In this document: positions 914-59,914 of the stretch, piece after piece
How the letters are laid out: each line of letters begins with the position of its first letter
Numbering within the stretch: the first letter of the stretch is position 1
From: an uncultured Staphylococcus sp.
Lineage (GTDB): Bacteria > Bacteroidota > Bacteroidia > Bacteroidales > Muribaculaceae
NCBI GenBank assembly: GCA_964477665.1
Contig: CAYZFG010000003.1
Coordinates: 16,776-80,775 of the forward strand
Direction: 5' to 3'
Length of the DNA: 64,000 nucleotides
The notes under the pieces: generated by a model
The model's input: the letters and a program-made list of their open reading frames with translations, nothing else
Databases searched by the model: none
What the model was told of the DNA's origin: nothing
Made by a program: the position numbers and the translations under genes

Positions 914-2445
914 ACTCCACGATACCAAGCATCACATCCCGCGACGACAAATGGCGTGAAGAACTCCGCGCCTCGATTCCTACACGCGAGCGCACGGCAA
1001 TCCCCCGGGCCAAGATGCCTGAGGTCGACGCTGCTTACCGCATCACCTGCGAGGATGAGGTCAATCAGGGCCTGTCGCTGGAACAGGCCGTGCTCGAATC
1101 GCGCCGCTGCCTCGACTGCCCCGACCCGGGCTGTGTAAAAGGGTGCCCCGTTCACAATAATATCCCCGGATTTATCAAGAATATCGAGCGCCGCAATTTC
1201 AAGATGGCTCTCGAAGTTCTCGACGAGACCACGGTGCTTCCCGCCGTGTGTGGCCGTGTGTGCCCGCAGGAAAAGCAGTGCGAGGCCTCGTGCATATATA
1301 ATAAGATGAAGAAGCCGCCGGTTTCCATAGGAAATCTTGAGCGCTTCGTGGCCGACGTCAACCGCGCCATGGCCCGCATGGGCGCCACCGTGCCCTCTAC
1401 AGCTACCGAGGCCCCCGAGGTAGTGGAAGAGCCGGTACCGGTGCGTCAGGCTCCGCTCATCTCCATCAAGATTGCAGTGGTGGGCTCCGGCCCGTCGGGT
1501 CTGGCTTTTGCCGGCGACATGGCCAAGCGCGGCTACAGTGTGACGGTTTTCGAGGCTCTGCATCAGTTTGGCGGTGTGCTGAAATACGGTATTCCCGAGT
1601 TCTGCCTGCCCAATGCAGTGGTGGAATATGAGATAGAAAAGCTCCGCTCATCGGGTGTGGAGCTCGTCAAGGACTGCTTCGTGGGCAAGACTTTCTCCTA
1701 CGATCAGCTCCACGAGATGGGATTCAAAGGCATATACATAGCCACCGGTGCCGGCAAGCCCCGCTTCATGGGTATCCCGGGTGAAAATCTGCCGGGGGTG
1801 ATGACGGCCAACGAGTATCTCATCCGCCTCAATCTTCTGAAATCAAAAATCTACGGTGTCAACTCCACGAGCCTCCACGAGAAGCACGTGGCGGTGATAG
1901 GTGGCGGCAACACGGCCATGGATGCCGTGCGCTACGCCCGCCGTCTTGGTGCCAAGCGCGCCATGATCGTCTACCGCCGCAGCGAGGAGGAGATGCCCGC
2001 CCGCATCGAGGAGATACGCCACGCCCGCGAGGAGGGAGTGGAATTTCTCACGCTCCACAATCCCGTGGAATACCTGGCCGACGAAAACGGTTTCCTCCGC
2101 GCTATGCGCCTGCAACGCATGGAGCTGGGCGAGCCTGACTCTACCGGTCGCCGCTCGCCGGTGCCCGTAGAGGGCGACATCGAGGAAGTGCCGGTGGACC
2201 TGGTAGTGGTGAGCGTGGGCTCGCTGCCTAATCCGCCCAAGTCGCTGCCTGACCTTGAGATGACCCGTCAGGGCGGCATAGTGGTCGACGGCGCTTCGAT
2301 GAAATCTTCTGCCTCATGTATCTACGCCGGCGGCGACATAGTGCGCGGCCCGGCTACGGTGATTCTCGCCATGGGCGACGGCCGTCGTGCCGCTCAGGCC
2401 ATGCACGAGGCATTCCTGCGCAAGCTTGAGCAAATCGAACTATAA
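910..2445 (+). CDS. gltA: NADPH-dependent glutamate synthase small-subunit family / NfnB-like oxidoreductase
   Basis: RCLDC..PGCVKGCPV, CGRVCPQEKQCE, GSGPSG, GGGNTAMD, AGGD motifs. Confidence 0.85.
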   Translation: MNSTIPSITSRDDKWREELRASIPTRERTAIPRAKMPEVDAAYRITCEDEVNQGLSLEQAVLESRRCLDCPDPGCVKGCPVHNNIPGFIKNIERRNFKMALEVLDETTVLPAVCGRVCPQEKQCEASCIYNKMKKPPVSIGNLERFVADVNRAMARMGATVPSTATEAPEVVEEPVPVRQAPLISIKIAVVGSGPSGLAFAGDMAKRGYSVTVFEALHQFGGVLKYGIPEFCLPNAVVEYEIEKLRSSGVELVKDCFVGKTFSYDQLHEMGFKGIYIATGAGKPRFMGIPGENLPGVMTANEYLIRLNLLKSKIYGVNSTSLHEKHVAVIGGGNTAMDAVRYARRLGAKRAMIVYRRSEEEMPARIEEIRHAREEGVEFLTLHNPVEYLADENGFLRAMRLQRMELGEPDSTGRRSPVPVEGDIEEVPVDLVVVSVGSLPNPPKSLPDLEMTRQGGIVVDGASMKSSASCIYAGGDIVRGPATVILAMGDGRRAAQAMHEAFLRKLEQIEL

Positions 2446-2523
2446 CCACCCTCTCCCACATATATATATTATAATCATCGTCCAATAATCAACTTAATCA
2501 TTAACCTATAAATCACTAAGAAA

Positions 2524-3543
2524 ATGAAAATCGTAACTTTAGGTGAAATCATGCTCCGCCTTTCTCCGAAAGGATGCCACCGCTTTGTAGAAGTAGACAA
2601 CTTTGATGTAATCTGGGGTGGCGGTGAGGCCAACGTAGCTGTAAGCTGCGCCAACTATGGTCTTGACGCTTACTTCGTAACCAAGCTCCCCAAGCACGAA
2701 ATCGGTCAGGCCGCTCTCAACGCTCTCCGTCGTTACGGCGTGAAGACTGACCACATCGCCCGTGGCGGCGACCGCGTAGGCATCTACTACTGCGAGACCG
2801 GTGCTTCGATGCGTCCTTCTAAGGTTATCTATGACCGCGCTCACTCGGCTATCTCTGAGGCTGATCCCGAAGATTTCGATTTCGACGCTATCATGGAAGG
2901 CGCTGACTGGTTCCACTGGAGCGGTATCACCCCCGCTATCTCTGATAAGGCTGCCGAGCTCACCCGCCTCGCTTGTGAAGCTGCCAAGCGTCACGGCGTG
3001 ACTGTATCCGTTGACCTCAACTTCCGCAAGAAACTCTGGACCAAGGAAAAAGCTCAGTCTATCATGCGACCCCTCATGAAGTATGTTGACGTATGTATCG
3101 GCAACGAGGAAGACGCCGAACTCTGCCTCGGCTTCAAGCCCGATGCTGACGTAGAAGGCGGCGAGACCAACGCTGAAGGCTACAAGGGCATCTTCACCGC
3201 TATGGCCAAGGAATTTGACTTCAAGTATGTGATCTCTACCCTCCGCGAGTCATTCTCTGCTACCCACAACGGCTGGAAGGCTATGATCTACAACGGCAAG
3301 GAATTCTACGAGTCAAAGCGCTACGACATCAACCCCATCATTGACCGTGTGGGTGGTGGCGACTCTTTCTCAGGCGGTATCATCTACGGCCTCCTCACCA
3401 TGCCCACCCAGGGTGAAGCCCTCGAATTTGCCGTAGCTGCATCGGCTCTCAAGCAGACTATCCCCGGCGACTTCAATCTCGTCACCGTTGAGGAAGTCAA
3501 GGCTCTCGCAGGCGGTAGCGCCAATGGCCGCGTTCAGCGCTAA
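2524..3543 (+). CDS. kdgK: 2-dehydro-3-deoxygluconokinase (PfkB family)
   Basis: GGGEANVA, IDRVGGGDSF PfkB signature; adjacent to eda. Confidence 0.9.
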   Translation: MKIVTLGEIMLRLSPKGCHRFVEVDNFDVIWGGGEANVAVSCANYGLDAYFVTKLPKHEIGQAALNALRRYGVKTDHIARGGDRVGIYYCETGASMRPSKVIYDRAHSAISEADPEDFDFDAIMEGADWFHWSGITPAISDKAAELTRLACEAAKRHGVTVSVDLNFRKKLWTKEKAQSIMRPLMKYVDVCIGNEEDAELCLGFKPDADVEGGETNAEGYKGIFTAMAKEFDFKYVISTLRESFSATHNGWKAMIYNGKEFYESKRYDINPIIDRVGGGDSFSGGIIYGLLTMPTQGEALEFAVAASALKQTIPGDFNLVTVEEVKALAGGSANGRVQR

Positions 3544-6985: not shown

Positions 6986-8827
6986 ATGTGCGGAATAGTA
7001 GGTTATTTAGGCCACCGTCAGGCCTATGACATTCTTATCAGCGGACTCCATCGCCTCGAATACCGTGGCTATGACAGCGCCGGCGTGGCTGTAGTCAACG
7101 ATGACGGCTCGCTCGAAGTCTGCAAAGCCAAGGGAAAGGTATCTAATCTTGAGCAGGCCGCTGCAGCTGTGAATCTGACCGGCCACCTTGGTATTGCCCA
7201 CACACGCTGGGCTACTCACGGCGAACCTAACAATATCAATGCCCACCCCCATCTGTCGCAGGACGGCTCGATAGCTCTCGTCCACAACGGCACCATCGAA
7301 AACTATGCCGTCATCAAGCAGATGCTCCTCGACAACGGCGTGGAATTTACCTCCGAGACTGACACCGAAGTGCTCGTGCAGTTCATCGCTTACATCCGTA
7401 ATGAAAACGGCTGCACCCTCTTCGAGGCCGTCACGAGCGCCCTCCGTCAGGTCGAAGGTGCTTTCGCCATAGGCATCGTCGAAGTCAATAATCCCGATAC
7501 GCTCATCGTGGCCCGCAAGGCATCGCCGCTGGTCATAGGCGTGGGCGACGGCGAAACTTTCATTGCCAGCGACGCCACCCCTATCGTGGGGTATACTGAC
7601 AAGGTTATATACCTGAAAGACAATGAAATCGCTCTCATAAAGCGCGGCGAGGATCTCCAGATCATCAATCTTACCGACTTCCATAAGAGCAACATCGACA
7701 TTCAGGAAATCAAGCTCTCGCTCGCCCAGCTCGAAAAGGGCGGCTACGACACCTTCATGCTCAAGGAAATCTTTGAGCAGCCCACCACACTCTGCGACTG
7801 TCTGCGCGGCCGCATCGTGAATGGACGCGTGAAGCTCGCCGGCGTGGAGCTCAACCGCGACGTATTCACCAAGTGCAAGCGCATAGTCCTCGTGGCGTGC
7901 GGCACTTCTTGGCACGCCGCCCTCATCGGCAAGCGCCTCCTCCAGGACTTCTGCAACCTTCCCGTGGAGGTGGAATACGCATCGGAGTTCCGTTACTCCA
8001 ACCCCTATCTCACCCCCGACGATGTAGTAATCGCCATCTCTCAGTCGGGCGAGACCGCCGACACCCTCGCCGCCATCCAGCTCGCTCGCGAGAAAGGCGC
8101 ATTTGTCTACGGAGTGTGCAACGTAGTGGGCGCATCCATCCCCCGCAACACTGACTCAGGCACTTACATCCACGTAGGCCCCGAGATAGGCGTGGCATCC
8201 ACCAAAGCCTTCACAGGTCAGGTCACCGTCCTTACACTCCTCGCCCTCGCCGTAGGTCAGCTCCGCGGCACAGTGTCGGCCGAGACAGTAAAGACCATTA
8301 CCGACGGCCTCAGCTCGCTCCCCGAGACTATCGAAGAAGTGCTTAAGCTCGCTCCCCGCATCAAGGAGCTCTCCAATATCTTCACCTACGCGCGCAACTT
8401 CCTCTACCTCGGCCGCGGCTACAACTACCCCACCGCCCTCGAAGGCGCCCTCAAGCTCAAGGAAATCTCCTACATCCACGCCGAGGGCTACCCCGCCGCC
8501 GAAATGAAACACGGCCCCATCGCCCTCATCGACCAGGAAATGCCCAGCGTGATCATCGCCCCGAGCGACTCGCTCTACGACAAGATTATCTCCAACGTCC
8601 AGCAGGTCAAGAGCCGCGGCGGCCACGTGCTCGCCATCGTCAGCAAAGGCAACACCTCCATGGACCATATCGCCGACTACTGCCTTGACATCCCCGATGT
8701 CCACGAATGTCTCACACCCATCGTGGCCTCGATACCCCTGCAGCTGCTCGCCTACTACATTGCCATCAACAAAGGCAAAAACGTCGACCAGCCCCGCAAC
8801 CTCGCCAAGTCAGTCACGGTAGAATAA
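6986..8827 (+). CDS. glmS: Glutamine--fructose-6-phosphate transaminase
   Basis: MCGIVG N-terminus, HTRWATHG, SQSGETADT, RNLAKSVTVE C-terminus. Confidence 0.97.
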   Translation: MCGIVGYLGHRQAYDILISGLHRLEYRGYDSAGVAVVNDDGSLEVCKAKGKVSNLEQAAAAVNLTGHLGIAHTRWATHGEPNNINAHPHLSQDGSIALVHNGTIENYAVIKQMLLDNGVEFTSETDTEVLVQFIAYIRNENGCTLFEAVTSALRQVEGAFAIGIVEVNNPDTLIVARKASPLVIGVGDGETFIASDATPIVGYTDKVIYLKDNEIALIKRGEDLQIINLTDFHKSNIDIQEIKLSLAQLEKGGYDTFMLKEIFEQPTTLCDCLRGRIVNGRVKLAGVELNRDVFTKCKRIVLVACGTSWHAALIGKRLLQDFCNLPVEVEYASEFRYSNPYLTPDDVVIAISQSGETADTLAAIQLAREKGAFVYGVCNVVGASIPRNTDSGTYIHVGPEIGVASTKAFTGQVTVLTLLALAVGQLRGTVSAETVKTITDGLSSLPETIEEVLKLAPRIKELSNIFTYARNFLYLGRGYNYPTALEGALKLKEISYIHAEGYPAAEMKHGPIALIDQEMPSVIIAPSDSLYDKIISNVQQVKSRGGHVLAIVSKGNTSMDHIADYCLDIPDVHECLTPIVASIPLQLLAYYIAINKGKNVDQPRNLAKSVTVE

Positions 8828-50161: not shown

Positions 50162-53100
50162 TTAGCGCACGGCTATCTTGGAGATTTCGCGGGTGCCGGC
50201 GGTCTCGGAGATGAGAATGTAGATGCCGGGGAGGGCCGACGAGGTGACGTTTTCAGCCACGCCGCGACCGCGGGCTACCACTCGACCGGTCATGGCGTCG
50301 ATGAGGGTCAGGCGGGTGGAGGGGGTTGCGGTTGCGGCATCAACTACGATGTCGTCGATACCGGCAGCGGGGATGTCGCCCTTAAGGAAGTCGTCCTTCA
50401 CGAGGCGATCGGTCATAGCGCCGGAGTAGATGCGGAATTCGTCGAGGCAGCCGCGGTATTTATTGTCAAAGCCGCAGGAGTTACCGATGATGAGCGGGAG
50501 GTTTTGGTCAGATACGTTACCTGACTGGTCAGGAGCTTCGCCCATGAGCTCGCCGTCGATATACATCTTCAGGGTCTTGGTGCTTCCTTCGCGCACGAGG
50601 GCGATGTGGTGCCAGGTCTGGTTGAAGAGCTCGGTGGCGTCGATTGATACTTCGCTCTTCTTTACATCGTCGTCGACGGCAAATTTCAGGCGGCCCGACT
50701 TGTATTCGAGGCCCACCCAGCACTCGTCAGTGTGGCCTTTGTGGAAGATGTAAGCATCGCGGGCGGGCGACTTGAACCAGAACATGATGGTGAAGTCTTT
50801 CTCGCCGAGCTGGATGGCGTCGTAGGCTGCCTGAGAGAAGTATACGCCTGAGGGATCGAGGTCAACGGCCATACCCACGGGGCCTTCTACGGCGATGGCG
50901 TCAGTCTTGCCTGCCTTCTTGGCTTCGCCATATACGAGGTTGGGCGTGGTGGCGCCGAGCTGCTCAAAGGGATAGTGGGCAAGGAGCTCGGTCTCTACGG
51001 CGCCTATCACTATGATAGTGCCGCTTACGGTAGCGCGGGGCTCGGCACCCGAGGTGGCGAGGGTAAATTCATAAGTGCCTTCGGCTACGGGAGTGCCGGC
51101 TACGGTGAAGGTCTGAGCCTCTTCGTCGATAGTGAGAGTTACGCCTTCGGGCAGACCTTCGGCGACAAACGACGGTGCGTTGGCCCACGTGCCTGAGATA
51201 GGCTCGATGGCATAGCCGAGCTCTACTACGCGGGTAAGGTCAGAGCTCGACACTGAGAGGCGGGGATCGCCGCTGAACATGTCGGGGAGGTAGTAGCCGA
51301 GGTGGGGCGGCTGATTATAGGCAGTATTTTGCCATGCGATGGCCATGCGGTATACGTGGTCCTGCATGAGGCAGGGTACCTTGTAGTCAGAGGGGATGGT
51401 GGTGGTGAACACAAGAAGGTCTGACATCGTGGAGCCGTCATACATCACCACTTCTTCGCGCCAGTCGCCGAAGAGGTCGGCCTGGATGCAGGGGGTAGAT
51501 TTGGTCTGGGTGACTGACTGTGCGTTGCTGAATTTCGAGAAATCCATCACTGACTTGGTAGAGGTGAGGTCAGAGTTCATCTTGGTTATCGAAGTGCCGT
51601 CGAGAATCTCGTCGAGCAGGTCGCCGTCCCAGTACACGCGGAAGTTGACCGAGGGACGGTTGGTAGACACGCAATTACCGGCCACGTCAAATATCTTGTT
51701 AGCCTTGGTGCCGTCGGTATAATCGGCTTGCGGCCACATCTCATATCCGCGGTAAGCGTCGGTGATGTCGGCAGCGAGTCCGCGGCCAATATCGTTGCCT
51801 GACTGGAGGAGGCCCCATATCACCTGACCCGTCTTGGCATCGCGCATTTCGGTATCATACTTGTAGTCACTTGTCTTTTCCTCGTGGACCATGAACACTT
51901 CAAGGCCTTCGCGGTCAGGATCGAGGTCGCCGAGGTGGAGGGCGTCGCCGTGGCCGAAGCCGGTGCGGTAGAGGAGCGAGCCGTCGTGGTCAAGACACGC
52001 CGAGCCGAATACTATTTCGTCGCAGCCGTCGCCGTCTACGTCGCCCACAGTTATCGAGTGGGCACCCTCGCCATAGAGGCCTTCACCTTTTTTCTCGGAT
52101 TTATGCAGCCAGCGGAGCTTGAGATTATGGCCGTCGAAGTCCCATGCTGCCACGTAGGCGGCAGTATAGTAGCCGCGACACATTATGATGCTGGGTTTCA
52201 TGCCGTCAAGATAAGCCACGCAGGCAAGGTAGCGCTCCGAGCGGTTGCCATAAGAGTCGCCCCAACTGCTGGTGATGGAGCGCAGGGGTTCGTAGCTCTC
52301 GGTGGCGAGGTTGGCGCCGGTGAGACCGGAGAACACGGTGAGGTATTCGGGGCCGGAGAGGATTGTGCCCACGTTGGTGCGGTAATCGTCGGTCACCTTA
52401 TCATTACCCATCAATACGGGATTGCCCTGGCCGTCGATAGTGCCGGGGGCGGTCTTCACTGCCAGCTCGGCCTTGCCGTCGCCGTCAAAGTCATAGACCA
52501 TCATGTGGGTATAATGGTTGCCGGCGCGGATGTTGCGGCCAAGGTCGATGCGCCACAGCTTCTCACCCGTCAGGCGGTAGCAATCTATATAAGTGTTGCC
52601 CGTGTAGCGGCGGTGAGCATTATCGGCGAAATTGGTGGGATCCCAGCGGAGGAAAATCTCGTAGGTACCGTCGCCGTCCACGTCGCCCACTGCGCATGAG
52701 CCGGGAGTGTAAGTGTAAGGATATGGTTCGGTAAGACTGGTCTTGCCGTTGGGGTCATCGGCCGTCACGCCACCGGCGGGCGAGATGCCACCCTCGGGGC
52801 GGTCGATATGGATGCGATGGAAAACTTCGGGCCACACGGCAGCCACGTCGGTAGTCTCCTTCACGGCATCGTCGAGCGTAGCCTTGAGCTGATACACCGA
52901 GCTTACAGTACCCTCAGGGTCAGTGAAGTTGCTCTTAAATTGGAGCGGCTCGGCGGTAATCTTCACGCCGTCGCGATAGATGTCAAACTTCAGATTCTTG
53001 TCATCATCGGCAAGGCTGCGCCACGAGAGAAACACGCCGTCGTCAGTCTTCACAGCCACGGCGCCGCGGTCGAGAAATTCCTGCTGCGGAGCCTCGGCTG

Positions 53101-53167
53101 CAACCGACATGCTGAAAGCCGCCGGCACCGCCACCGCCGCAAGAATCATTTTCAATGAAAATTTCAT
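50162..53167 (-). CDS. Rhamnogalacturonan lyase (PL11) with Ig-like, LamG-like domains and T9SS CTD
   Basis: LDRGAVAV..VFLSWR, NIRAGNHYT, DFDGDGKAE, HGDALH, NTAYNQPPH; WHHIALVR LamG motif. Confidence 0.9.
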   Translation of the reverse strand: MKFSLKMILAAVAVPAAFSMSVAAEAPQQEFLDRGAVAVKTDDGVFLSWRSLADDDKNLKFDIYRDGVKITAEPLQFKSNFTDPEGTVSSVYQLKATLDDAVKETTDVAAVWPEVFHRIHIDRPEGGISPAGGVTADDPNGKTSLTEPYPYTYTPGSCAVGDVDGDGTYEIFLRWDPTNFADNAHRRYTGNTYIDCYRLTGEKLWRIDLGRNIRAGNHYTHMMVYDFDGDGKAELAVKTAPGTIDGQGNPVLMGNDKVTDDYRTNVGTILSGPEYLTVFSGLTGANLATESYEPLRSITSSWGDSYGNRSERYLACVAYLDGMKPSIIMCRGYYTAAYVAAWDFDGHNLKLRWLHKSEKKGEGLYGEGAHSITVGDVDGDGCDEIVFGSACLDHDGSLLYRTGFGHGDALHLGDLDPDREGLEVFMVHEEKTSDYKYDTEMRDAKTGQVIWGLLQSGNDIGRGLAADITDAYRGYEMWPQADYTDGTKANKIFDVAGNCVSTNRPSVNFRVYWDGDLLDEILDGTSITKMNSDLTSTKSVMDFSKFSNAQSVTQTKSTPCIQADLFGDWREEVVMYDGSTMSDLLVFTTTIPSDYKVPCLMQDHVYRMAIAWQNTAYNQPPHLGYYLPDMFSGDPRLSVSSSDLTRVVELGYAIEPISGTWANAPSFVAEGLPEGVTLTIDEEAQTFTVAGTPVAEGTYEFTLATSGAEPRATVSGTIIVIGAVETELLAHYPFEQLGATTPNLVYGEAKKAGKTDAIAVEGPVGMAVDLDPSGVYFSQAAYDAIQLGEKDFTIMFWFKSPARDAYIFHKGHTDECWVGLEYKSGRLKFAVDDDVKKSEVSIDATELFNQTWHHIALVREGSTKTLKMYIDGELMGEAPDQSGNVSDQNLPLIIGNSCGFDNKYRGCLDEFRIYSGAMTDRLVKDDFLKGDIPAAGIDDIVVDAATATPSTRLTLIDAMTGRVVARGRGVAENVTSSALPGIYILISETAGTREISKIAVR

Positions 53168-53443: not shown

Positions 53444-55525
53444 TCAATAAGAAGCAACGCTGGTCTTGGCCGATGAAGGACCGGAGATGTCAATGCTGCG
53501 GTCGACTTTACGGCCATAGTCAAAAGTGTAAGTGACGTTGATCGAGAATCGTCGCCCGGGGTTGAATGCGGTGTAATCAGTAGTGTAATGTGGTGATGCA
53601 AAGCGGTTGATGCGCTTTTCCTTGTGATGAAATATATCCTCGGCTCGGGCTGAAAGATAGAGATTGCCACTGCCATAAGTGACACTGAAATTGAAGTAGT
53701 CTTGTCTCCAACTATAGGCAAGGCCACCGAGGGAGATTCCACTGTAAGGACTTTCATAGGCGGCTTGAAATCTGACGTTGCCGAGCGTATACGATGCATC
53801 ACCCGATATAGAGAAATGAGTATGGCTACGGGTCAGAAGAGGCTCGGAGTAAAATATATAAAAAATCGTGGGCCGGAGATTCAACGACAGCTTTCCGTTG
53901 AGGAGATTGCCTGACAATGATAGCGAGGCGTTAATGACGTTCTCAGGCGTGCAGTTGAGGTTTTCCCTGATCAGACCGCCTTGCTCTATGGAAGCTGCCG
54001 AGTAGTCAGAATATATTTGATCGTTGATTCTCGAATAATGCAGATTGAATGAGGTAGATAATTCGTTGCAGGGTAAATATGAAAAGTAAGTACCGGCATC
54101 CCAGGAGGAAACATCCTTTAGAAATGGATTGCCGAGCGACCATAACAATTCACTATGTTTTACCATCACGGGATTAGTTTCGCCGGAGGAAGCAGAACGG
54201 AGATAATAGCGGAGGCTTCCGCTGAGATTGAATTTGCGACCGGGGTTCCAGTTGAGCGAGCCGGTGATATTGGGATTGAAGTCATGGCGCGATATTGCAC
54301 CGATATCTCGTATAGTGAGGTCAAATCCGGGCTCGAAACGAACGCTGAATTTCGCAGTAGGGTACCAAGTAACTCGTAGCTGTGAAGTAAGATTCTTGCG
54401 GCTGATATGTTGTCGTGTGTCGGCCGAGCCCTTATAGCGGGTTGAGTAAAAATCAGCCGATCCGTCGAGCAAAAGATTGAATCCGAGTTTTTCAGAGGGG
54501 ATGAATGAGGGGAAGATAACAAGACGGCAAGAGTTGACATCCTCTTTTGTCATGTTGACTATAGGAGAGGTGCTTCCGAATTGACTGAGTGACGACGCAT
54601 CATTACGGGCGTAGGTATACAGCCACGTGCCATACAAATACCATCGGCGTGGCAATGTAAACATGTAAGCCCCACTTATCTGCGGTGAGAGGGTCTTAGA
54701 GGTAGAACTTGACAACGTATTGGAAGCCCCGAAAAGATCTTGCGACCAGGCTCCGTAACTTTCAGTCACTGACTCGGGCTTGGCTTCGCGGAGAAGTGAT
54801 ATTGTGTGAGTAATCTGAGTCTTGTCAGTGGAGTACTTGGCATTGAAAGATAATGAAGCGTAATTATGTTTGCTACGGCTCACGCTTTCATCCGTGTAAC
54901 TGATTTCGTCATAATACTCTCCATCGTAATAAAGGTCGCGGTATCGGGTTGTGCCGGTGGCTTTATTGGCTTTGTCGCGGGAATAATTACCGGAGAGCAT
55001 CAGTCCGTAGGTCATTTTACGATACACGAGCTTTGAGGCTATTTCGCCGTTTCCGTAGGTCTGTACAAACTTCTGCATGACGTTTGCCCTCGTCACACCC
55101 CCATATTCATATACCGGCATGATGAAATTTACAGCGGCCTCCACACCCTCAAACCGAGGATCGGCCGGATGCTCTATATACTGCACTCGCTTGACATTCA
55201 TAGAGTAGAAAGTAGCGAGATCAATATCATTGGCACGCTCGCCATTGATAAATACAGCTACGGCTTGTCCCGCGGGATTTACAATCGCCCCCTCCTTCTC
55301 GCGCAGAAACGGCAGGTTCATCGAGCCGATGAGCGTAGCGGGACTATTGGAGAGCTTTTTCTCACTTTTGGTGGGGATGACGTTGATGATACCATCCTTT
55401 ATCCACCCTCGGTCAGCCTTCACCACCACATCGTCAAGCATCAGATCGGGGATAGAATCATCGGCGAGAGATGAGCCTATCCCAAATATGAAAATTGACA
55501 GAATAAAAGCCGAAATGCACTTCAT
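53444..55525 (-). CDS. Large outer-membrane beta-barrel protein (TonB-dependent-like, plug plus barrel)
   Basis: Signal peptide, LDDVVVKA, plug-like INGE..D, alternating beta strands, FSINVTYTF near the C-terminus. Confidence 0.7.
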   Translation of the reverse strand: MKCISAFILSIFIFGIGSSLADDSIPDLMLDDVVVKADRGWIKDGIINVIPTKSEKKLSNSPATLIGSMNLPFLREKEGAIVNPAGQAVAVFINGERANDIDLATFYSMNVKRVQYIEHPADPRFEGVEAAVNFIMPVYEYGGVTRANVMQKFVQTYGNGEIASKLVYRKMTYGLMLSGNYSRDKANKATGTTRYRDLYYDGEYYDEISYTDESVSRSKHNYASLSFNAKYSTDKTQITHTISLLREAKPESVTESYGAWSQDLFGASNTLSSSTSKTLSPQISGAYMFTLPRRWYLYGTWLYTYARNDASSLSQFGSTSPIVNMTKEDVNSCRLVIFPSFIPSEKLGFNLLLDGSADFYSTRYKGSADTRQHISRKNLTSQLRVTWYPTAKFSVRFEPGFDLTIRDIGAISRHDFNPNITGSLNWNPGRKFNLSGSLRYYLRSASSGETNPVMVKHSELLWSLGNPFLKDVSSWDAGTYFSYLPCNELSTSFNLHYSRINDQIYSDYSAASIEQGGLIRENLNCTPENVINASLSLSGNLLNGKLSLNLRPTIFYIFYSEPLLTRSHTHFSISGDASYTLGNVRFQAAYESPYSGISLGGLAYSWRQDYFNFSVTYGSGNLYLSARAEDIFHHKEKRINRFASPHYTTDYTAFNPGRRFSINVTYTFDYGRKVDRSIDISGPSSAKTSVASY

Positions 55526-55570
55526 CTATTTAGAGAGAAGTTTGTTATTGCGATTTATAAACGCTTACAT

Positions 55571-56212
55571 TCAGAAGAAGAACTTAAATGCCAGTAGGAG
55601 CGAAGCGGGGTTGTAATGCTTCTTGTAGATGGCGACATTCTCGGGCTTGTTGGCGCGGGTGAGGTCGATGTTAAACATTATATCAAATTGCCCGCCATCG
55701 GTGTAAAAGCCTAAACCTACACAGGCAGCCAGACTATTGGGATACCATAATTGCGACGAACTCATGCGCTGCTCGGGCACCTGACCTGAAGTGGTGGTGG
55801 AGAAATAATGATTATATTGCACGCCTATCTGTGGCACGAAGCAGCTGGTATTGGGGTTATCGTCAGACGCACACTTGTATCCGAATATCAGCGGCACACC
55901 CACGCTCCAGCGATTAAGCTGAATACGCGGATCGGAAATGTCGGCGGCTCTGATCCAAGTGTAGTCATAGCATATCTTTGCTCCCGGCTCTACGAAAAAC
56001 TTTTTGGTAATCATGATGCGTGACAATGCTCCGACTGATCCTCCCCAACCGGGCTGAGGAAGATAGTGGTTGATACCACCCTGCGTAAAGTTGATGTCAG
56101 CGCCCAATGTGAATCCCCAATATACTCTCTTGTCTTTAACTTGAAATCCCTCCTCCTCGGCTACCATCACGAAAGGAAGGATAAGCATAAATAGCGCGAT
56201 TAACTTTTTCAT
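55571..56212 (-). CDS. Small outer-membrane beta-barrel (porin/PorT-like) protein
   Basis: Signal peptide, amphipathic strands, C-terminal Phe. Confidence 0.7.
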   Translation of the reverse strand: MKKLIALFMLILPFVMVAEEEGFQVKDKRVYWGFTLGADINFTQGGINHYLPQPGWGGSVGALSRIMITKKFFVEPGAKICYDYTWIRAADISDPRIQLNRWSVGVPLIFGYKCASDDNPNTSCFVPQIGVQYNHYFSTTTSGQVPEQRMSSSQLWYPNSLAACVGLGFYTDGGQFDIMFNIDLTRANKPENVAIYKKHYNPASLLLAFKFFF

Positions 56213-56353
56213 AGAAGTAATAATTTATAGTTGTTGTGATGTGATAGATTACAAAGTTATGGGTTTTATGTAGAAAATGCAAATAAAAATTATTTTTGAG
56301 TATCAAAGTGCAGCCCATACTAATCGTGAGGTTGTATATGCTCTACTTCTGTT

Positions 56354-56443
56354 CAGCCGCCTCCGGGGCTGGCGTACGATAGGAGGGGAGTGGCCGCGGG
56401 TGGCAAGCACCCACGGTTGTTAAGATGCCATCCCTCCGGGATG
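56354..56443. repeat. Three-hairpin REP/MITE-like element
   Basis: cagccgcctccggggctg; ccgcgggtg-gcaag-cacccacgg; catccc-tcc-gggatg. Confidence 0.55.
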
Positions 56444-56508
56444 CAATGGCTTACGCCATACAAATACTGTTTGCGCGATTGCTACATAAAAAAGCCTTAG
56501 ATGGGAAA

Positions 56509-57501
56509 TTATTCATCTCGGCCATATTCTTCAAATTCTGCGTAGGTTTTTTCGTACCACAGGTGAGCACTGCATACAGCCGTGGAGAACACTGAATAGA
56601 GTATTGACTTTTCTGCATCAGCATAAGTTTCATCTTTCTCGATTTCACTTATATAACTGTCAATAAGCGTTTTTATATCGTCAAGATTATTAGGATAATC
56701 TTTTAATGCCTCTGCAAACAGATAGACGACTTTTTCTGTCCTTGTCGGGTTTATTCTATTTACTGTTGGAAGACCAACAATTGAAACAGGAGTACTGTAA
56801 TACTCTTTAAATTTTGGTCCATGCATAAGCCTAAAGGCATAAATCATTTCTTCATCTCCGTTGGCTGCATCCTCTAAAGTATATGGTAATTCTTCTTTGT
56901 CCATCAGTTGTCTGAGCGAAACATTGTGACGCAGGCCTGTTTCAAAGCTTTTCACGTGATTGCTTGGCAATTTTATGTTAGCAGTTTTGCAGCGCTCACG
57001 TTCGTTTGACATCAGCGAGGGTATTAGATACGAACTTGCCAATGCATGCTCTACACTATCCTGCTGAATCAAAGTTTTTTTAGTCGTAAGCCCTTCAATA
57101 CTTCCGGTCTGCTCTCCTCGCAGGTTATACTCTAAAGAATAGGCAGTACCAACTATAATACCTCCAATACTGGCTCCGATTCCGCCACCGATTGAGAACC
57201 CTACTGACGCTCCTTTCAGGGCGCCATTCAGGTCTGCAGTAATAGTTTTAACTGACTTTTTCCACCACTCTTTAAACTTGCTCCAGATGCTGCGGCTTTC
57301 GGGGCTCATAGATTGAAGTTGTGACTGTGCGATTAGGCTGTCGTTGAGTGCTTGCAGCTTAATGAGTAGCGGATCATTTTCAAGAGATGACACGGCTGAA
57401 ACCTCGGTTACATTTGCTTCGGGTTCATCTTGGCTTGTGCACGCAGTAAACCCTGCGATAATCGCAACTACGGTAAAAGAGAAAAATAATAACTTCTTCA
57501 T
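56509..57501 (-). CDS. Hypothetical surface lipoprotein with cationic/Trp segment and glycine-zipper helix
   Basis: Lipobox FTAC plus acidic SQDEPE; SRSIWSKFKEWWKK...ADLNGALKGASVGFSIGGGIGASIGGIIVG. Confidence 0.7.
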   Translation of the reverse strand: MKKLLFFSFTVVAIIAGFTACTSQDEPEANVTEVSAVSSLENDPLLIKLQALNDSLIAQSQLQSMSPESRSIWSKFKEWWKKSVKTITADLNGALKGASVGFSIGGGIGASIGGIIVGTAYSLEYNLRGEQTGSIEGLTTKKTLIQQDSVEHALASSYLIPSLMSNERERCKTANIKLPSNHVKSFETGLRHNVSLRQLMDKEELPYTLEDAANGDEEMIYAFRLMHGPKFKEYYSTPVSIVGLPTVNRINPTRTEKVVYLFAEALKDYPNNLDDIKTLIDSYISEIEKDETYADAEKSILYSVFSTAVCSAHLWYEKTYAEFEEYGRDE

Positions 57502-57677
57502 GTGTAAATTTTATTGGATAATTAATATTGGATAATTAATAATGTGGATTTCAATAAAAAGTAAGTTTCAATAATCAGTATCAAGCATTTTAATTGAGGC
57601 TGAAAGCGCAATTATATGCTGAGGTTTCGAACTTAATCATTGAAACTTACCAAGGTATAATTACTATGAGGAGAGAT

Positions 57678-58061
57678 TTATATATTTACGTAACCGGCGT
57701 AAATATATTCGGTGGTAGAGATGCGGATTTCGAGAGTACCTGTGAGGGAGAAAAGGGTGTCGATAAACTCTGCTTCGACGGGTGTGGCGATGATACACAC
57801 CTCATCTTCTGAATATATCTCGTAAAGTTCAATCTCGGCTTTGTCAACGAGCGGAATCGTTACGCCGTTTTCAGGGTCGATAGTGCATTGAAGCGGACGG
57901 GTGGGAACGCGCCGACCTTCATCATCAATAGAAACTTCAGGACCCATGGTGTAATAACGGTAAAACACTACTGCCAAAGGCGCAAACGAGTAAGCCGAGG
58001 AGAGCTGGGGGATGAGTAGTGAGATGAGTGAAATTGTGAAAATAATGATGCTTTTTTTCAT
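57678..58061 (-). CDS. Small secreted DUF3244-like beta protein
   Basis: Signal peptide, GRRVP motif, beta-rich C-half ending GYVNI; sits directly after a TPR-HTH regulator. Confidence 0.55.
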   Translation of the reverse strand: MKKSIIIFTISLISLLIPQLSSAYSFAPLAVVFYRYYTMGPEVSIDDEGRRVPTRPLQCTIDPENGVTIPLVDKAEIELYEIYSEDEVCIIATPVEAEFIDTLFSLTGTLEIRISTTEYIYAGYVNI

Positions 58062-58086
58062 AGTGAATTTTTTATTTTTTACGATG

Positions 58087-58094
58087 CAAAGGTA
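58087..58094 (-). promoter_or_regulatory. -7 promoter element for the small secreted protein gene
   Basis: TACCTTTG on the minus strand 26 nt upstream of ATG 58061. Confidence 0.7.
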
Positions 58095-58125
58095 GATCGA
58101 CGCGGGCTCAAATTGGCCTAAAAAT

Positions 58126-58171
58126 AGTACGGAAAAAGTACGGAAATGAGATTCCGCACTTTTTCCGTACT
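58126..58171. promoter_or_regulatory. Candidate operator: 46-bp palindrome built of 11-bp-period AGTACGGAA repeats
   Basis: agtacggaaaaagtacggaa-atgaga-ttccgcactttttccgtact; arms match 19/20. Confidence 0.65.
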
Positions 58172-58192
58172 AAAGAAATATGTATAATTTAC

Positions 58193-59914
58193 TTATAATA
58201 AGCAAATTATAGTATCAACTACTTTGTTGCTCACTTTTTGTCCAAAGATTCGCGTGCCTATCGATTCGCGGCGTGAAGATATGGTAGTTTTAGAGCGACA
58301 AAGCAAGGTTGACATCTGACTCGGTGTGACACCGCACTTCACAAGAATTGCCGTGTGCAAGTCAAATGATTGTAATTTTCCATTCAAAAGCAATCGCAGG
58401 TTTTCAAGAAAATGGGGGGATGATTGAAGTATCACTTCTTCCAATCTTTTCCAGAGATCGGATTCTTCTTTAATTTGTGTACCTGAATTGACATGCTGCT
58501 GTAACGACTTGTAGGCTTCTGAACCAAGTATTATCGGTGAAATTGTGACAGATCCCGAGTATTGAGCAGATAAGTTGAGTAGCTTTTCACGAAGTTTTAA
58601 GCGCAGGCGCTCAGCTTCAGAGTAGGAGTCATCATATTTCGGGTTATTAGCCTCCACCAGATCTTCAACTGTCTGACCGGGATTCTCGCTTAGCGATAAC
58701 TCAAGTAATCTAATATTTTCAAGAGCTCTCTGTAATTCAATAATAATCTTTTTCTCTCTATTTTTCAGCAATAGGATAATTATACCTAAAATTAGGATTG
58801 TAAAAATGAAATATATAATAATCCTTTGCAGTTTACGATTGGCTTTTTGTGCTTTAGCTTTTTCTTTTTCATGAATACTATAGTTGAAAGAAGACTATTG
58901 TATCAGAGCTTGTTGATTGATATTGTCATTATAATATGATTCCAGAAGTTTAAGATAGTCTGAGTAGTATATATCAATTGAATCTTTATCAATATATGGT
59001 CTTAGTTCAGACGTTAAAAGAATATAGTAACCGGTTTCTTTATTAGTGGGATACTCGCTGTGAATTAGTCGAGATGCGAATATATATGCCGAATCAGGCA
59101 TCCCTGCAGCTCTGTATATTTCTGCGCCATAAGCTAATGCACTGTTAGATGCGAGAGAACTTACTAAATCAGGGGTATCTTTGATGTACATTCGCGCCGA
59201 ATCGATTTGTCCCATGTAGAACTTTGTGGCAGCCTTATACATTAAAGATTTGGCGTGGATTGATTTCTTTAAATTTTTACTTAAGACTAATACGTGAGAA
59301 TATATCGAATCAGCGATCTCATAATGGTGAGCGCGAAGATGAATCGTCCCCAATAGTTGAAGGTCATACGCTTCATTGACCGAATCGTTAAGCAGTCGGT
59401 CTATAGAAATGGATTCTTTGATGAAAGGAATGGCTTCGTTATATAAGCGTAAGTTATCAAGTAACCGTCCATATTGACTGATGATATTGGCGCGGAGGTT
59501 GAGGGTGGAGGGGTCGGAGGGGAGGTGGTCGAGGGCATCCTGATAGTATCGGAGAGCTGTGGGGAAGTCGCCGAGGTCGCTGTAGACGCGACCACCGTAA
59601 TAAAGAGCTTCGGGATAACGGCCGAGCGAGGTGTGGCGGCTTTCGTAGTCAATTACGTGCAGAATGGTGGTGTCGGAGGTGTGGGGGCGATAAGCTTTGT
59701 CGGCGATCTTTACGGAGAGAAATTCGTAGTAGCGGCGGTCAGCTTCGGGTAACTGCGCCGCGACAATCGCGTCCAGAGAATCGAGTGCGGCGAGTGCGGC
59801 TGTCGGCGATTTTTCCGCCATGGCTTCGGCCCTGAACAGGCGCTGATCAGTAGGGCGCGGCGTGCAGGCGGCAAGCAGGGTTAAGAGCGCTATGATGGCG
59901 AAGCGGATATGCAT
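58193..59914 (-). pseudogene. Lipoprotein-TPR-TM-HTH membrane-anchored regulator interrupted by one in-frame TAG (58895-58897)
   Basis: ORFs 58895..59914 and 58193..58771 share a frame; reading through TAG gives 573 aa with a TM helix and C-terminal HTH. Confidence 0.75.

Follow-up and report, generated by a model that had tools for sequence, protein, structure and literature searches.

A SusR-like transmembrane regulator and its predicted four-core operator in an accessory envelope cassette of Muribaculaceae

We analysed positions 53444-59914, where all elements lie on the minus strand, of a 64,000-nt stretch of contig CAYZFG010000003.1 from a Muribaculaceae genome (hereafter the window). 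The assembly of this genome is 2.63 Mb in 137 contigs, and its assignment to Muribaculaceae follows the names carried by the closest matches. Comparison with about 90 related loci suggests that most of the analysed region is an accessory cassette consisting of a SusR-like transmembrane regulator, a four-core operator, a small secreted partner and probable surface competition cargo. We put the probability of this reading at roughly 0.65. The evidence is strongest for the regulator and its operator, which are described first.

The regulator begins with a lipobox signal (LLAAC, residues 1-17), followed by a periplasmic tetratricopeptide repeat (TPR) domain, a single transmembrane (TM) helix, a coiled-coil linker and a LuxR-like C-terminal helix-turn-helix (HTH) domain. 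The TPR domain is matched by the Pfam models TPR_12 (1.5e-9) and TPR_2 (7.9e-8). In an alignment of 22 homologues, the lipobox Cys is nearly invariant and the C-terminal HTH is conserved. A lipid-anchored periplasmic TPR sensor joined by a TM helix to a cytoplasmic HTH had been proposed in the first-pass annotation of this DNA; these parts are seen both in the translation and in the aligned homologues, and the predicted topology of periplasmic sensor, one TM helix and cytoplasmic HTH is that of SusR-like regulators. The same annotation considered the architecture to be without a characterised precedent. We withdraw that claim, as both the topology and the output domain resemble SusR-like (DUF6377) regulators, though below the Pfam cut-off. 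The match to Pfam DUF6377 (PF19904) has an E-value of 1.4e-5 and 25.2 bits, under the gathering cut-off of 36.7. When the whole genome was scanned with this model, the window locus scored 25.6 bits and two other genes scored 240 and 188 bits. An hhalign comparison of the regulator with a bona fide DUF6377 protein from the same genome gave an E-value of 0.003 (27% identity over 90 columns). Because its score, its gene context and its site architecture all depart from DUF6377, we place the regulator outside that family. A profile of the regulator had only generic TPR matches in PDB, the nearest natural ones being LGN and RapF (RapF, 1.2e-4).

Homologues of the read-through regulator are numerous: 398 full-length proteins were found, nearly all of them 558-600 aa long and either without a name or annotated as 'tetratricopeptide repeat protein'. 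Species-representative genomes, when scanned, yielded 79 regulator loci, all in Muribaculaceae and frequently several per genome. Among 151 Muribaculaceae genomes, the family is present in 30, representing 14 of 35 genera, at one to six copies each. As judged from these searches, the family is large, unnamed and restricted to Muribaculaceae, with an output domain remotely like that of SusR/DUF6377 proteins. A tally of the genes called behind the regulator in these 79 loci contained no SusC/SusD pair.

The palindrome that directly follows the regulator gene, starting about 20 nt past its stop codon, has the layout GTACGG-N5-GTGCGG, a 6-nt spacer, and CCGTAC-N5-CCGTAC. Its two arms (58125-58145 and 58152-58172) are 21 nt each and 95% complementary. 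The same layout recurs across the family. In 46 of 78 loci, an exact 6-mer is repeated at 11 bp over an A/T-rich spacer in the 150 nt after the regulator stop, and 43 of these also have the mirror copy. For comparison, the counts were 4/74 and 1/64 for the control stretches and 0.44 per 78 for shuffled sequences, with 0.5% of genome tiles positive. At least 13 cores are seen among paralogues (CCGTAC, CCGCAC, CCGCAT, CAGTCA, CCGTCA, CCGTTA, CCGTTC, CCGCTC, TCGCAC, GCGCAC, TCGAAC/CCGAAC, TCAAAC and TGGAAC), all in this one layout, so the four copies in a locus change jointly. Such joint change fits a homo-oligomeric DNA-binding protein; an RNA stem requires only that the arms stay complementary. 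Several loci lack a hairpin and have direct repeats only, with the same spacing (L035, with four copies of CCGTCA, L013 and L016/L031).

The distance from the operator to the next promoter is rigid. A Bacteroidetes -7 box of the form TAnnTTTG follows the proximal core at 31-33 nt in 39 of the 54 loci to which a core was assigned (27 at 32 nt and 11 at 31 nt); the sequence between the two is unconserved. At this distance the cores fall at about -45 and -56, as an activator site would. Core type also clusters on a tree of regulator C-termini, requiring 23 changes where shuffled labels need 37.1 (none of 200 shuffles came as low), and residues of the recognition helix co-vary with the core: for example, K is found with ..[TC]AC, and N, Q or H with ..T[TC]A. 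We treat the tree correlation as support and not as proof, because site and gene are linked. Together, the concerted core changes, the fixed promoter spacing and the conservation of the cores within a diverged allele (described next) strongly argue for the palindrome as a cognate activator site of the adjacent regulator; an operator had been suggested at first annotation.

The allele comparison uses L126, a Logan contig from a near-identical strain that carries bamD, the regulator, the small gene, the lipoprotein gene, the small barrel gene and the start of the large barrel gene. Identity to the window is near-complete on both sides of a diverged 1.45-kb block (Table 1). The block takes in the regulator from about residue 180 onwards, the operator with the promoter, and some 45 codons at the start of the small gene. 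The mature N-terminus of the small protein differs between the two strains. Inside it, the L126 operator is a perfect 2+2 arrangement of the core seen in the window, with an equal 32-nt spacing. Since cores and spacing are kept within DNA of 50-65% identity, the operator cores must be strongly constrained. By this alignment, the sensor-output region, the operator and the partner N-terminus were swapped between alleles as one block.

The L126 regulator is intact (568 aa). In the window, as the first-pass annotation had noted, a single in-frame TAG interrupts the regulator, in an alignment column that is a conserved Gln in homologues. Recoding of TAG was ruled out, since 95 of 1373 long frames across the genome terminate with this codon as a normal stop. 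Internal stops are present in only 3 of 62 family members (151 genomes), and the truncated 339-aa product is recorded on three contigs. The other cassette genes are 99.5-100% identical to those of the strain with the intact regulator, so the TAG is recent. As it falls between sensor and output, the circuit should be off in the window genome.

In 37 of the 72 loci that offer enough sequence (38 loci by clustering), the gene immediately downstream of the regulator encodes a homologue of the small secreted protein, whatever the cargo. Because it is linked to the regulator and not to any particular cargo, we propose it as a partner of the TPR sensor. Regulator, operator and small protein recur as a core, which gives good support to the one-component transmembrane circuit suggested at first annotation. 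That annotation had also called the small protein DUF3244-like, which holds only at the level of remote similarity. Pfam DUF3244 (PF11589) did not match the window protein or 29 relatives at E ≤ 1, but hhalign of the small-protein alignment against a DUF3244-type set gave a probability of 90% (E 1.6e-6, 111 columns). This set comprises seven sequences from the equivalent position in lipoprotein loci, two of which pass the Pfam DUF3244 cut-off. On profile-profile comparison alone, then, the small protein is a probable remote DUF3244 relative. Its profile had no significant match among PDB sequences (best E 0.2).

Judged by synteny, the genes for the regulator, small protein, lipoprotein and small barrel make up an accessory cassette of 4.3 kb (55571-59914) that has entered between bamD and a barrel gene of the OMP_b-brl_3 kind, which is resident there. 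In Duncaniella sp. (locus L122), the nearest orthologue of this resident 693-aa barrel (68% identity) directly adjoins bamD-rpoZ-rpsO, and the other four genes are not present. Downstream synteny in L122 (major facilitator superfamily (MFS), TetR and ATP-binding cassette (ABC) genes) is the same as in the window, and junction alignments show an insertion bounded by the regulator start codon and the small-barrel stop. Because the L122 barrel lies beside bamD without the cassette genes, and because of these junctions, we define the cassette as four genes without the 693-aa barrel. The five minus-strand genes, the palindrome and the long intergenic hairpin of the first-pass annotation were all found in place. 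Its five-gene module is reduced to the four-gene unit, with the large barrel as a resident neighbour; a unit including that barrel is ruled out by the L122 synteny and the junctions. The AT-rich composition described earlier is also evident, with a GC content of 33-47% over 55.5-59.5 kb versus 55-60% in the flanks and 52.5% genome-wide. It should also be noted that the 5' end of the regulator gene (59373-59914) is native-like at 55% GC, contrary to the remaining cassette.

Next to the cassette, the window encodes a 1001-aa rhamnogalacturonan-lyase-like protein (50162-53167) between the resident barrel gene and the MFS gene. This gene is missing from the syntenic stretch of L122 and is therefore a second strain-specific insertion adjoining the cassette.

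Searches of the cassette-region products with Pfam, NCBIfam and PADLOC returned the TPR and weak DUF6377 matches for the regulator and no Pfam match for the other four proteins. PADLOC anti-phage models did not match any of the five proteins at E ≤ 0.01.

From the distribution of -7 boxes, the region probably has three transcription units: the regulator alone, a unit from the small gene across the hairpin into the lipoprotein gene, and one that joins the two barrel genes. The regulator box lies within the bamD-side spacer, which is still homologous to the cassette-free L122 locus. A pattern scan gave no -7 box before the large-barrel gene, and the one that its L122 orthologue has is absent from the window junction. 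The large barrel, resident by descent, is thus probably now attached transcriptionally to the small barrel. The hairpin between the small gene and the lipoprotein gene folds at -32.8 kcal/mol (z = -5.2; 0 of 200 shuffles as stable), confirming the annotated structure, and is probably a terminator or attenuator.

Besides a lipobox with acidic residues after the Cys, the lipoprotein shows the motif LNDSL, a Gly-zipper of the form AD..GA..G...G and, at its C-terminus, a conserved helical domain. Acidic residues after the lipobox are a surface-export signal in Bacteroidota. A word-indexed search recovered only the lipoprotein itself, and the family was found by a full HMMER search: 146 cluster representatives at E ≤ 1e-3, all of about 300-340 aa. 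The lipoprotein is found in 14 of 201 Muribaculaceae genomes, and among 251 order-wide genomes in only one besides the window's own. In these genome sets the family is confined to Muribaculaceae. An AlphaFold2 (AF2) model built from the single sequence was uninformative (predicted local distance difference test (pLDDT) score 36). With the family alignment, the model is all-alpha with a pLDDT of 85.2 and a predicted template modelling score (pTM) of 0.81, and places the Gly-zipper within a 63-residue helix. Foldseek returned no match for this model in PDB or BFVD (best E 0.27, TM < 0.2), and no toxin fold can therefore be claimed. The lipoprotein also differs from class II bacteriocins and microcins in having a lipoprotein signal and 330 aa, its match to MccV has an E-value of 0.6, and the cassette has no C39 transporter. 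Of the 'toxin-like hydrophobic segment' in the first-pass annotation, the Gly-rich hydrophobic stretch is present but similarity to a known toxin is not.

Neighbourhood comparison showed that the regulator, small protein and lipoprotein also occur together elsewhere, as the first-pass annotation would predict: on contig C41 of the same genome and in other Muribaculaceae genomes. C41 carries a paralogous module, 30-33% identical overall, with a different TPR-TM-HTH regulator, a 122-aa small protein, a lipoprotein (31-33% identical to that of the window) and a 207-aa small barrel (30%), followed by the contig end. Contig C14, which would add a large barrel, was considered as the continuation of C41; the two do not overlap, and C14 begins within another gene. 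In other genomes, the lipoprotein follows a TPR regulator and a small DUF3244-type protein, and is itself followed by fast-evolving 4-TM proteins of about 120 aa, not by barrels. These 4-TM proteins occupy the position of an immunity gene.

Within C41, a 1.2-kb spacer (2200-3400) separates the regulator from the small gene. Three tandem 28-nt repeats come right after the stop codon, and the spacer also contains two long inverted repeats (CCCCGTACTTTAGTGCGGGG ... CCCCGCACTAAAGTACGGGG) that look like an inserted element of the miniature inverted-repeat transposable element (MITE) type. A further family member is encoded on contig C49 of this genome (11361-13504). It is intact (551 aa), and its palindrome, TATTCGGAAAAATTTCGA ... 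TGAAATTTTTTCGAATA, is not that of the window; a -7 box is present as well. The next gene encodes a 119-aa 4-TM protein, like the putative immunity genes that follow the lipoprotein family elsewhere, and is perhaps an orphan immunity gene that has a regulator of its own.

The small barrel protein falls in a BLAST cluster with proteins from six other regulator-linked loci, and its cluster mate in L045 matches PF13505 at 2.4e-13. The small barrel of the first-pass annotation is supported by this clustering with OMP_b-brl proteins, the protein itself having no Pfam match and a weak NCBIfam match to the TDE1717 outer-membrane (OM) barrel model (E 0.01). The resident 693-aa protein likewise has no Pfam match of its own; many homologues at 33-48% identity, among them ones at 45-47%, carry PF14905 and are named 'outer membrane beta-barrel family protein'. 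Members of this barrel family are also found within peptide loci that encode radical S-adenosylmethionine (rSAM) enzymes and C39 proteins (L076 and L125).

Sister loci carry varied cargo behind the regulator. Some encode double-glycine (GG) leader peptides with rSAM/SPASM maturases, PF14905 barrels and C39-ABC exporters. In others, 72-aa peptides occur beside GLPGLI proteins and 834-aa barrels. Further cargo includes a VKOR-type oxidoreductase, proteases (C10 and C13), and surface lipoproteins with small PF13505 barrels. A 17188-bp Logan contig, recovered from three samples with differing start points (L003, L004 and L005), carries a regulator family member together with ParA/ParG, a Mob_Pre relaxase and a resolvase, which suggests a small plasmid. 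The contig also has the CCGTAC operator and a partner gene, and encodes two peptides with GG leaders, a B12-rSAM enzyme, a PF14905 barrel and an exporter of the C39-ABC type.

From these data we propose the following mechanism. The lipid-anchored TPR domain would face the periplasm, with one helix crossing the inner membrane so that the C-terminal HTH reaches DNA. HTH domains of an oligomer, probably two dimers, would occupy the four 6-nt cores. Because the proximal core is 32 nt upstream of the -7 box, binding would be expected to switch on the next gene's promoter, and the regulator's own transcript probably ends at the palindrome too. The first regulated gene would produce a small periplasmic beta-sandwich protein, acting as a co-sensor, feedback modulator or stabiliser of the TPR sensor. 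Read-through of the attenuating hairpin would then allow expression of the surface-exported, all-alpha lipoprotein, while the small OM barrel would be made from its own promoter with the resident large barrel transcriptionally attached. Effector, transport and immunity roles for the lipoprotein and barrels are putative. The cargo is most likely an envelope-active competition factor, because sister loci carry GG-leader peptides, rSAM enzymes, C39 proteins and barrels, and lipoprotein loci carry 4-TM proteins. This assignment is the weakest step of the proposal.

The palindrome could instead be merely a Rho-independent terminator of the regulator gene, its conservation reflecting upkeep of a hairpin, with the downstream genes outside regulator control. 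Its position so close behind the stop codon would suit a terminator, and the mirror-arm changes that preserve pairing are as an RNA stem predicts. It also passes a terminator scan, with a 20-bp stem followed by TATTTTT, and a T-rich tract is often found behind the 3' arm in other loci. However, a hairpin does not need tandem identical units in each arm, yet exact 6-mers 11 bp apart are found in 46 of the 78 loci. Loci with direct repeats only (L035 and L013) are unable to form a hairpin and still keep the cores and the 32-nt spacing. A rigid 31-33 nt to the next gene's -7 box is a promoter constraint, the cores are identical between alleles whose surrounding DNA is only ~55% identical, and an array of the same core occurs far from any regulator gene. 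We consider a terminator without operator function very improbable. Since the palindrome passes the scan, a dual operator/terminator role is likely. A different objection is that the locus is a decaying remnant, in which the nonsense codon marks a dead regulator and the downstream genes are silent or neutral passengers. The regulator is indeed interrupted, its truncated 339-aa product is on record from three contigs, and the cassette is rare in the genus, with no regulator match in the same-genus genomes among those listed. The remaining cassette genes are nevertheless all intact, and their 99.5-100% identity to the intact-regulator strain makes the stop recent. The small barrel has its own -7 box, and internal stops are rare in the family (3/62), leaving decay with little to recommend it.

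A nutrient-sensing and uptake module in the SusR tradition has somewhat more in its favour. The TPR domain would sense a periplasmic glycan or nutrient, and the lipoprotein and barrels would form a capture and import complex. The regulator shares its topology and output domain with SusR-like/DUF6377 proteins, which control polysaccharide utilization loci (PULs), and the pairing of lipoprotein and barrel is the manner in which Bacteroidota build uptake complexes. The rhamnogalacturonan-lyase-like protein in the window flank and a ten-copy core array upstream of a pectate-lyase-like gene (contig C57, described below) point in the same direction. Against this, the loci surveyed had neither a SusC/SusD pair nor a glycoside hydrolase among the genes called behind the regulator, and many sister loci carry GG-leader peptides, rSAM maturases and C39 exporters instead. 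TPR sensors have a peptide- or protein-binding fold, as in the nearest PDB matches LGN and RapF, and the small barrel belongs with the 8-strand, OmpA-like ones, which makes it too small for transport. An uptake role is therefore unlikely in our view, and a regulated cassette with probable competition cargo remains the preferred reading.

Several observations weigh against the preferred reading. Linkage of the operator to the regulator gene means that the tree correlation could partly reflect co-inheritance, and the palindrome behaves as a terminator in the scan described above. The small partner is missing from about 40% of loci and hence is not obligatory. No -7 box was found by pattern scan directly before the lipoprotein gene. 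The lipoprotein has no sequence or fold similarity to known toxins in Pfam, NCBIfam, PADLOC or Foldseek searches, and the window cassette contains no obvious immunity gene. Finally, the C57 array hints at a regulon beyond the cassette, with a possibly glycan-related role.

A strict exact-core 2+2 scan of the genome returned only self-palindromic hexamers, the window site itself having one G/A mismatch. The C57 array (7622-7726) consists of ten GT(A/G)CGG cores with an 11-bp period, far from any regulator gene, and its core is identical to that of the window operator. It lies 40 nt upstream of a TAATTTTG box and a gene for a 937-aa pectate-lyase-like protein with a type IX secretion system (T9SS) tail. 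Two T9SS-tailed paralogues of 396-410 aa follow, with a 100-N gap with duplicated flanks in between. By its core, the array may be an unlinked second target of the regulator. Triple arrays of this type, with A/T-rich spacers, were found in one other genome among the 151 family genomes (G119, which has three regulator copies).

Table 1. Coordinates of features in the analysed region, and identity of window segments to the near-identical strain L126
Feature	Window position	Strand	Basis
-7 box of regulator (TAATTTTG), ~28 nt upstream of start codon	59942..59949	-	pattern scan
Transmembrane one-component regulator (predicted), 573 codons with one TAG	58193..59914	-	translation, Pfam, homologue alignment
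In-frame TAG, splitting TPR sensor (339 aa) from TM helix and HTH output	58895..58897	-	translation
Single TM helix of regulator (IIIYFIFTILILGIIILLL)	58766..58822	-	translation; hydrophobic block in all 22 aligned homologues
C-terminal HTH output domain (DLHTAILVKCGVTPSQMSTLLCRSKTTISSRRESIG...)	58196..58366	-	most conserved portion of regulator alignment
Predicted operator: two GT(A/G)CGG cores 11 bp apart, 6-nt spacer, two CCGTAC cores 11 bp apart	58125..58172	-	repeat analysis
-7 box of small-protein gene (TACCTTTG), exactly 32 nt downstream of proximal CCGTAC core	58087..58094	-	pattern scan
Small secreted protein, 127 aa, signal peptidase I (SPase I) signal, two conserved Cys, E-G-R-R-x-P motif	57678..58061	-	alignments
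Long hairpin and T-run between small gene and lipoprotein gene	57561..57650	-	RNA fold, inverted repeat
Surface-type lipoprotein, 330 aa	56509..57501	-	profile search, alignment, AF2
-7 box of small-barrel gene (TAACTTTG), ~40 nt upstream	56252..56259	-	pattern scan
Small outer-membrane beta-barrel, 213 aa, signal peptide, C-terminal ...FKFFF; last cassette gene	55571..56212	-	BLAST clustering
Plug-plus-barrel protein of OMP_b-brl_3 kind, 693 aa; resident neighbour	53444..55525	-	homologues, synteny
Segment with 99.5-100% identity to L126	55346-57928		
Segment with about 50-65% identity to L126	57928-59373		
Segment with 96-100% identity to L126	59373-60568		

SusR-like regulators have been known since the 1990s, and their DNA sites are still predicted only. 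The family described here offers a compact and readily testable operator for which no fewer than 13 specificities occur in nature, all with a rigid promoter geometry, and could settle how membrane-spanning regulators engage DNA. Its operator codes could also supply orthogonal parts for engineering gut Bacteroidales. The regulator type is tied to cassettes for peptides made by the ribosome and modified after translation (RiPPs), bacteriocin-like functions and surface proteins in Muribaculaceae, a dominant family of the mouse and human gut. To our knowledge, the Muribaculaceae are poorly studied and almost nothing is known of their competition factors. DUF3244-type proteins gain a concrete hypothesis, that of a periplasmic partner for a TPR sensor. 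The lipoprotein is specific to the family, and its modelled fold is confidently predicted and unmatched. Two near-identical strains, one with an intact and one with an interrupted regulator, provide a natural experiment at hand. A far broader picture is possible but doubtful: an undescribed Muribaculaceae family of envelope switches that sense peptides or proteins with DUF3244-like partners and, through a mutually orthogonal and evolvable operator code in which each paralogue has its own 6-nt core while the 2+2 geometry stays fixed, drive interchangeable antagonism cassettes (RiPPs, proteases and lipoprotein toxins). In that picture the 330-aa lipoprotein would found a new membrane-active surface-toxin fold, its Gly-zipper helix being released into target envelopes.

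Among known systems, a parallel for the cargo is BcpT of Phocaeicola, a 499-aa surface-lipoprotein antibacterial toxin that needs proteolytic activation and has a small downstream immunity gene (PMC9308784). Compared by description, the window lipoprotein is likewise a predicted surface lipoprotein on an accessory element, and small membrane proteins follow its family in other genomes. Unlike the BcpT locus, the window cassette has an OM barrel in place of a small immunity gene, and toxicity of its lipoprotein is putative. The BcpT precedent and the pattern of 4-TM genes are why an antagonistic role is our leading guess. Sister loci also resemble Bacteroidales GG-leader/rSAM RiPP and bacteroidetocin-type loci (PMC10352776, PMC6671954), with which they share precursors, rSAM/SPASM enzymes, C39-ABC exporters, VKOR-type oxidoreductases and OM barrels, whereas the window cassette has none of their biosynthetic or export genes. 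TPR genes are mentioned in passing in two Bacteroidales RiPP clusters (PMC10352776), and the regulator, operator and partner are not described in these studies (PMC10352776, PMC6671954).

The regulator itself can be compared with three groups. Like the RRNPP proteins (Rap, NprR, PlcR and PrgX), it combines a TPR sensor with an HTH in loci that control secreted peptides or bacteriocin-like functions. However, RRNPP proteins are cytoplasmic, have an N-terminal HTH and belong to Firmicutes, whereas here the membrane-tethered TPR domain is predicted to face the periplasm, with the HTH at the C-terminus. ToxR/ToxS and TcpP/TcpH of Vibrio also pair a membrane one-component activator with an adjacent small periplasmic protein that modulates or stabilises the sensor, a partnership that gene linkage alone suggests here. 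ToxR has an N-terminal cytoplasmic winged HTH, giving the opposite topology, and there is no sequence relationship; in addition, the partner gene in the window would itself be the first regulated gene.

The greatest likeness is to SusR (BT3705) of B. thetaiotaomicron, a phylum-specific regulator that joins a periplasmic N-terminal sensor through one TM helix to a cytoplasmic C-terminal HTH and activates the genes beside it. DUF6377 proteins are SusR-like PUL regulators of Bacteroidota with a periplasmic sensor, a membrane span and a cytoplasmic HTH, for which repeat-type DNA sites have been predicted (PMC3878776). BguR, described in 2026, is a further type of membrane-spanning regulator. The C-terminal domain of the window regulator is weakly homologous to that of SusR-like proteins (Pfam, 1.4e-5; hhalign, E 0.003). 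It differs in falling short of the Pfam gathering score (25.2 versus 36.7 bits) and in having a lipid-anchored TPR sensor. Window-type regulators are linked to secreted or surface cargo and peptide clusters, not to SusC/D PULs, and their loci have a conserved small secreted partner gene. Where the predicted SusR-like sites consist of two boxes 67 or 77 bp apart, the operator here is a compact 2+2 arrangement with 11-bp spacing by the -33 region. On sequence grounds, we regard it as a new form of SusR-type regulator, transmembrane and one-component, that has a defined operator code.

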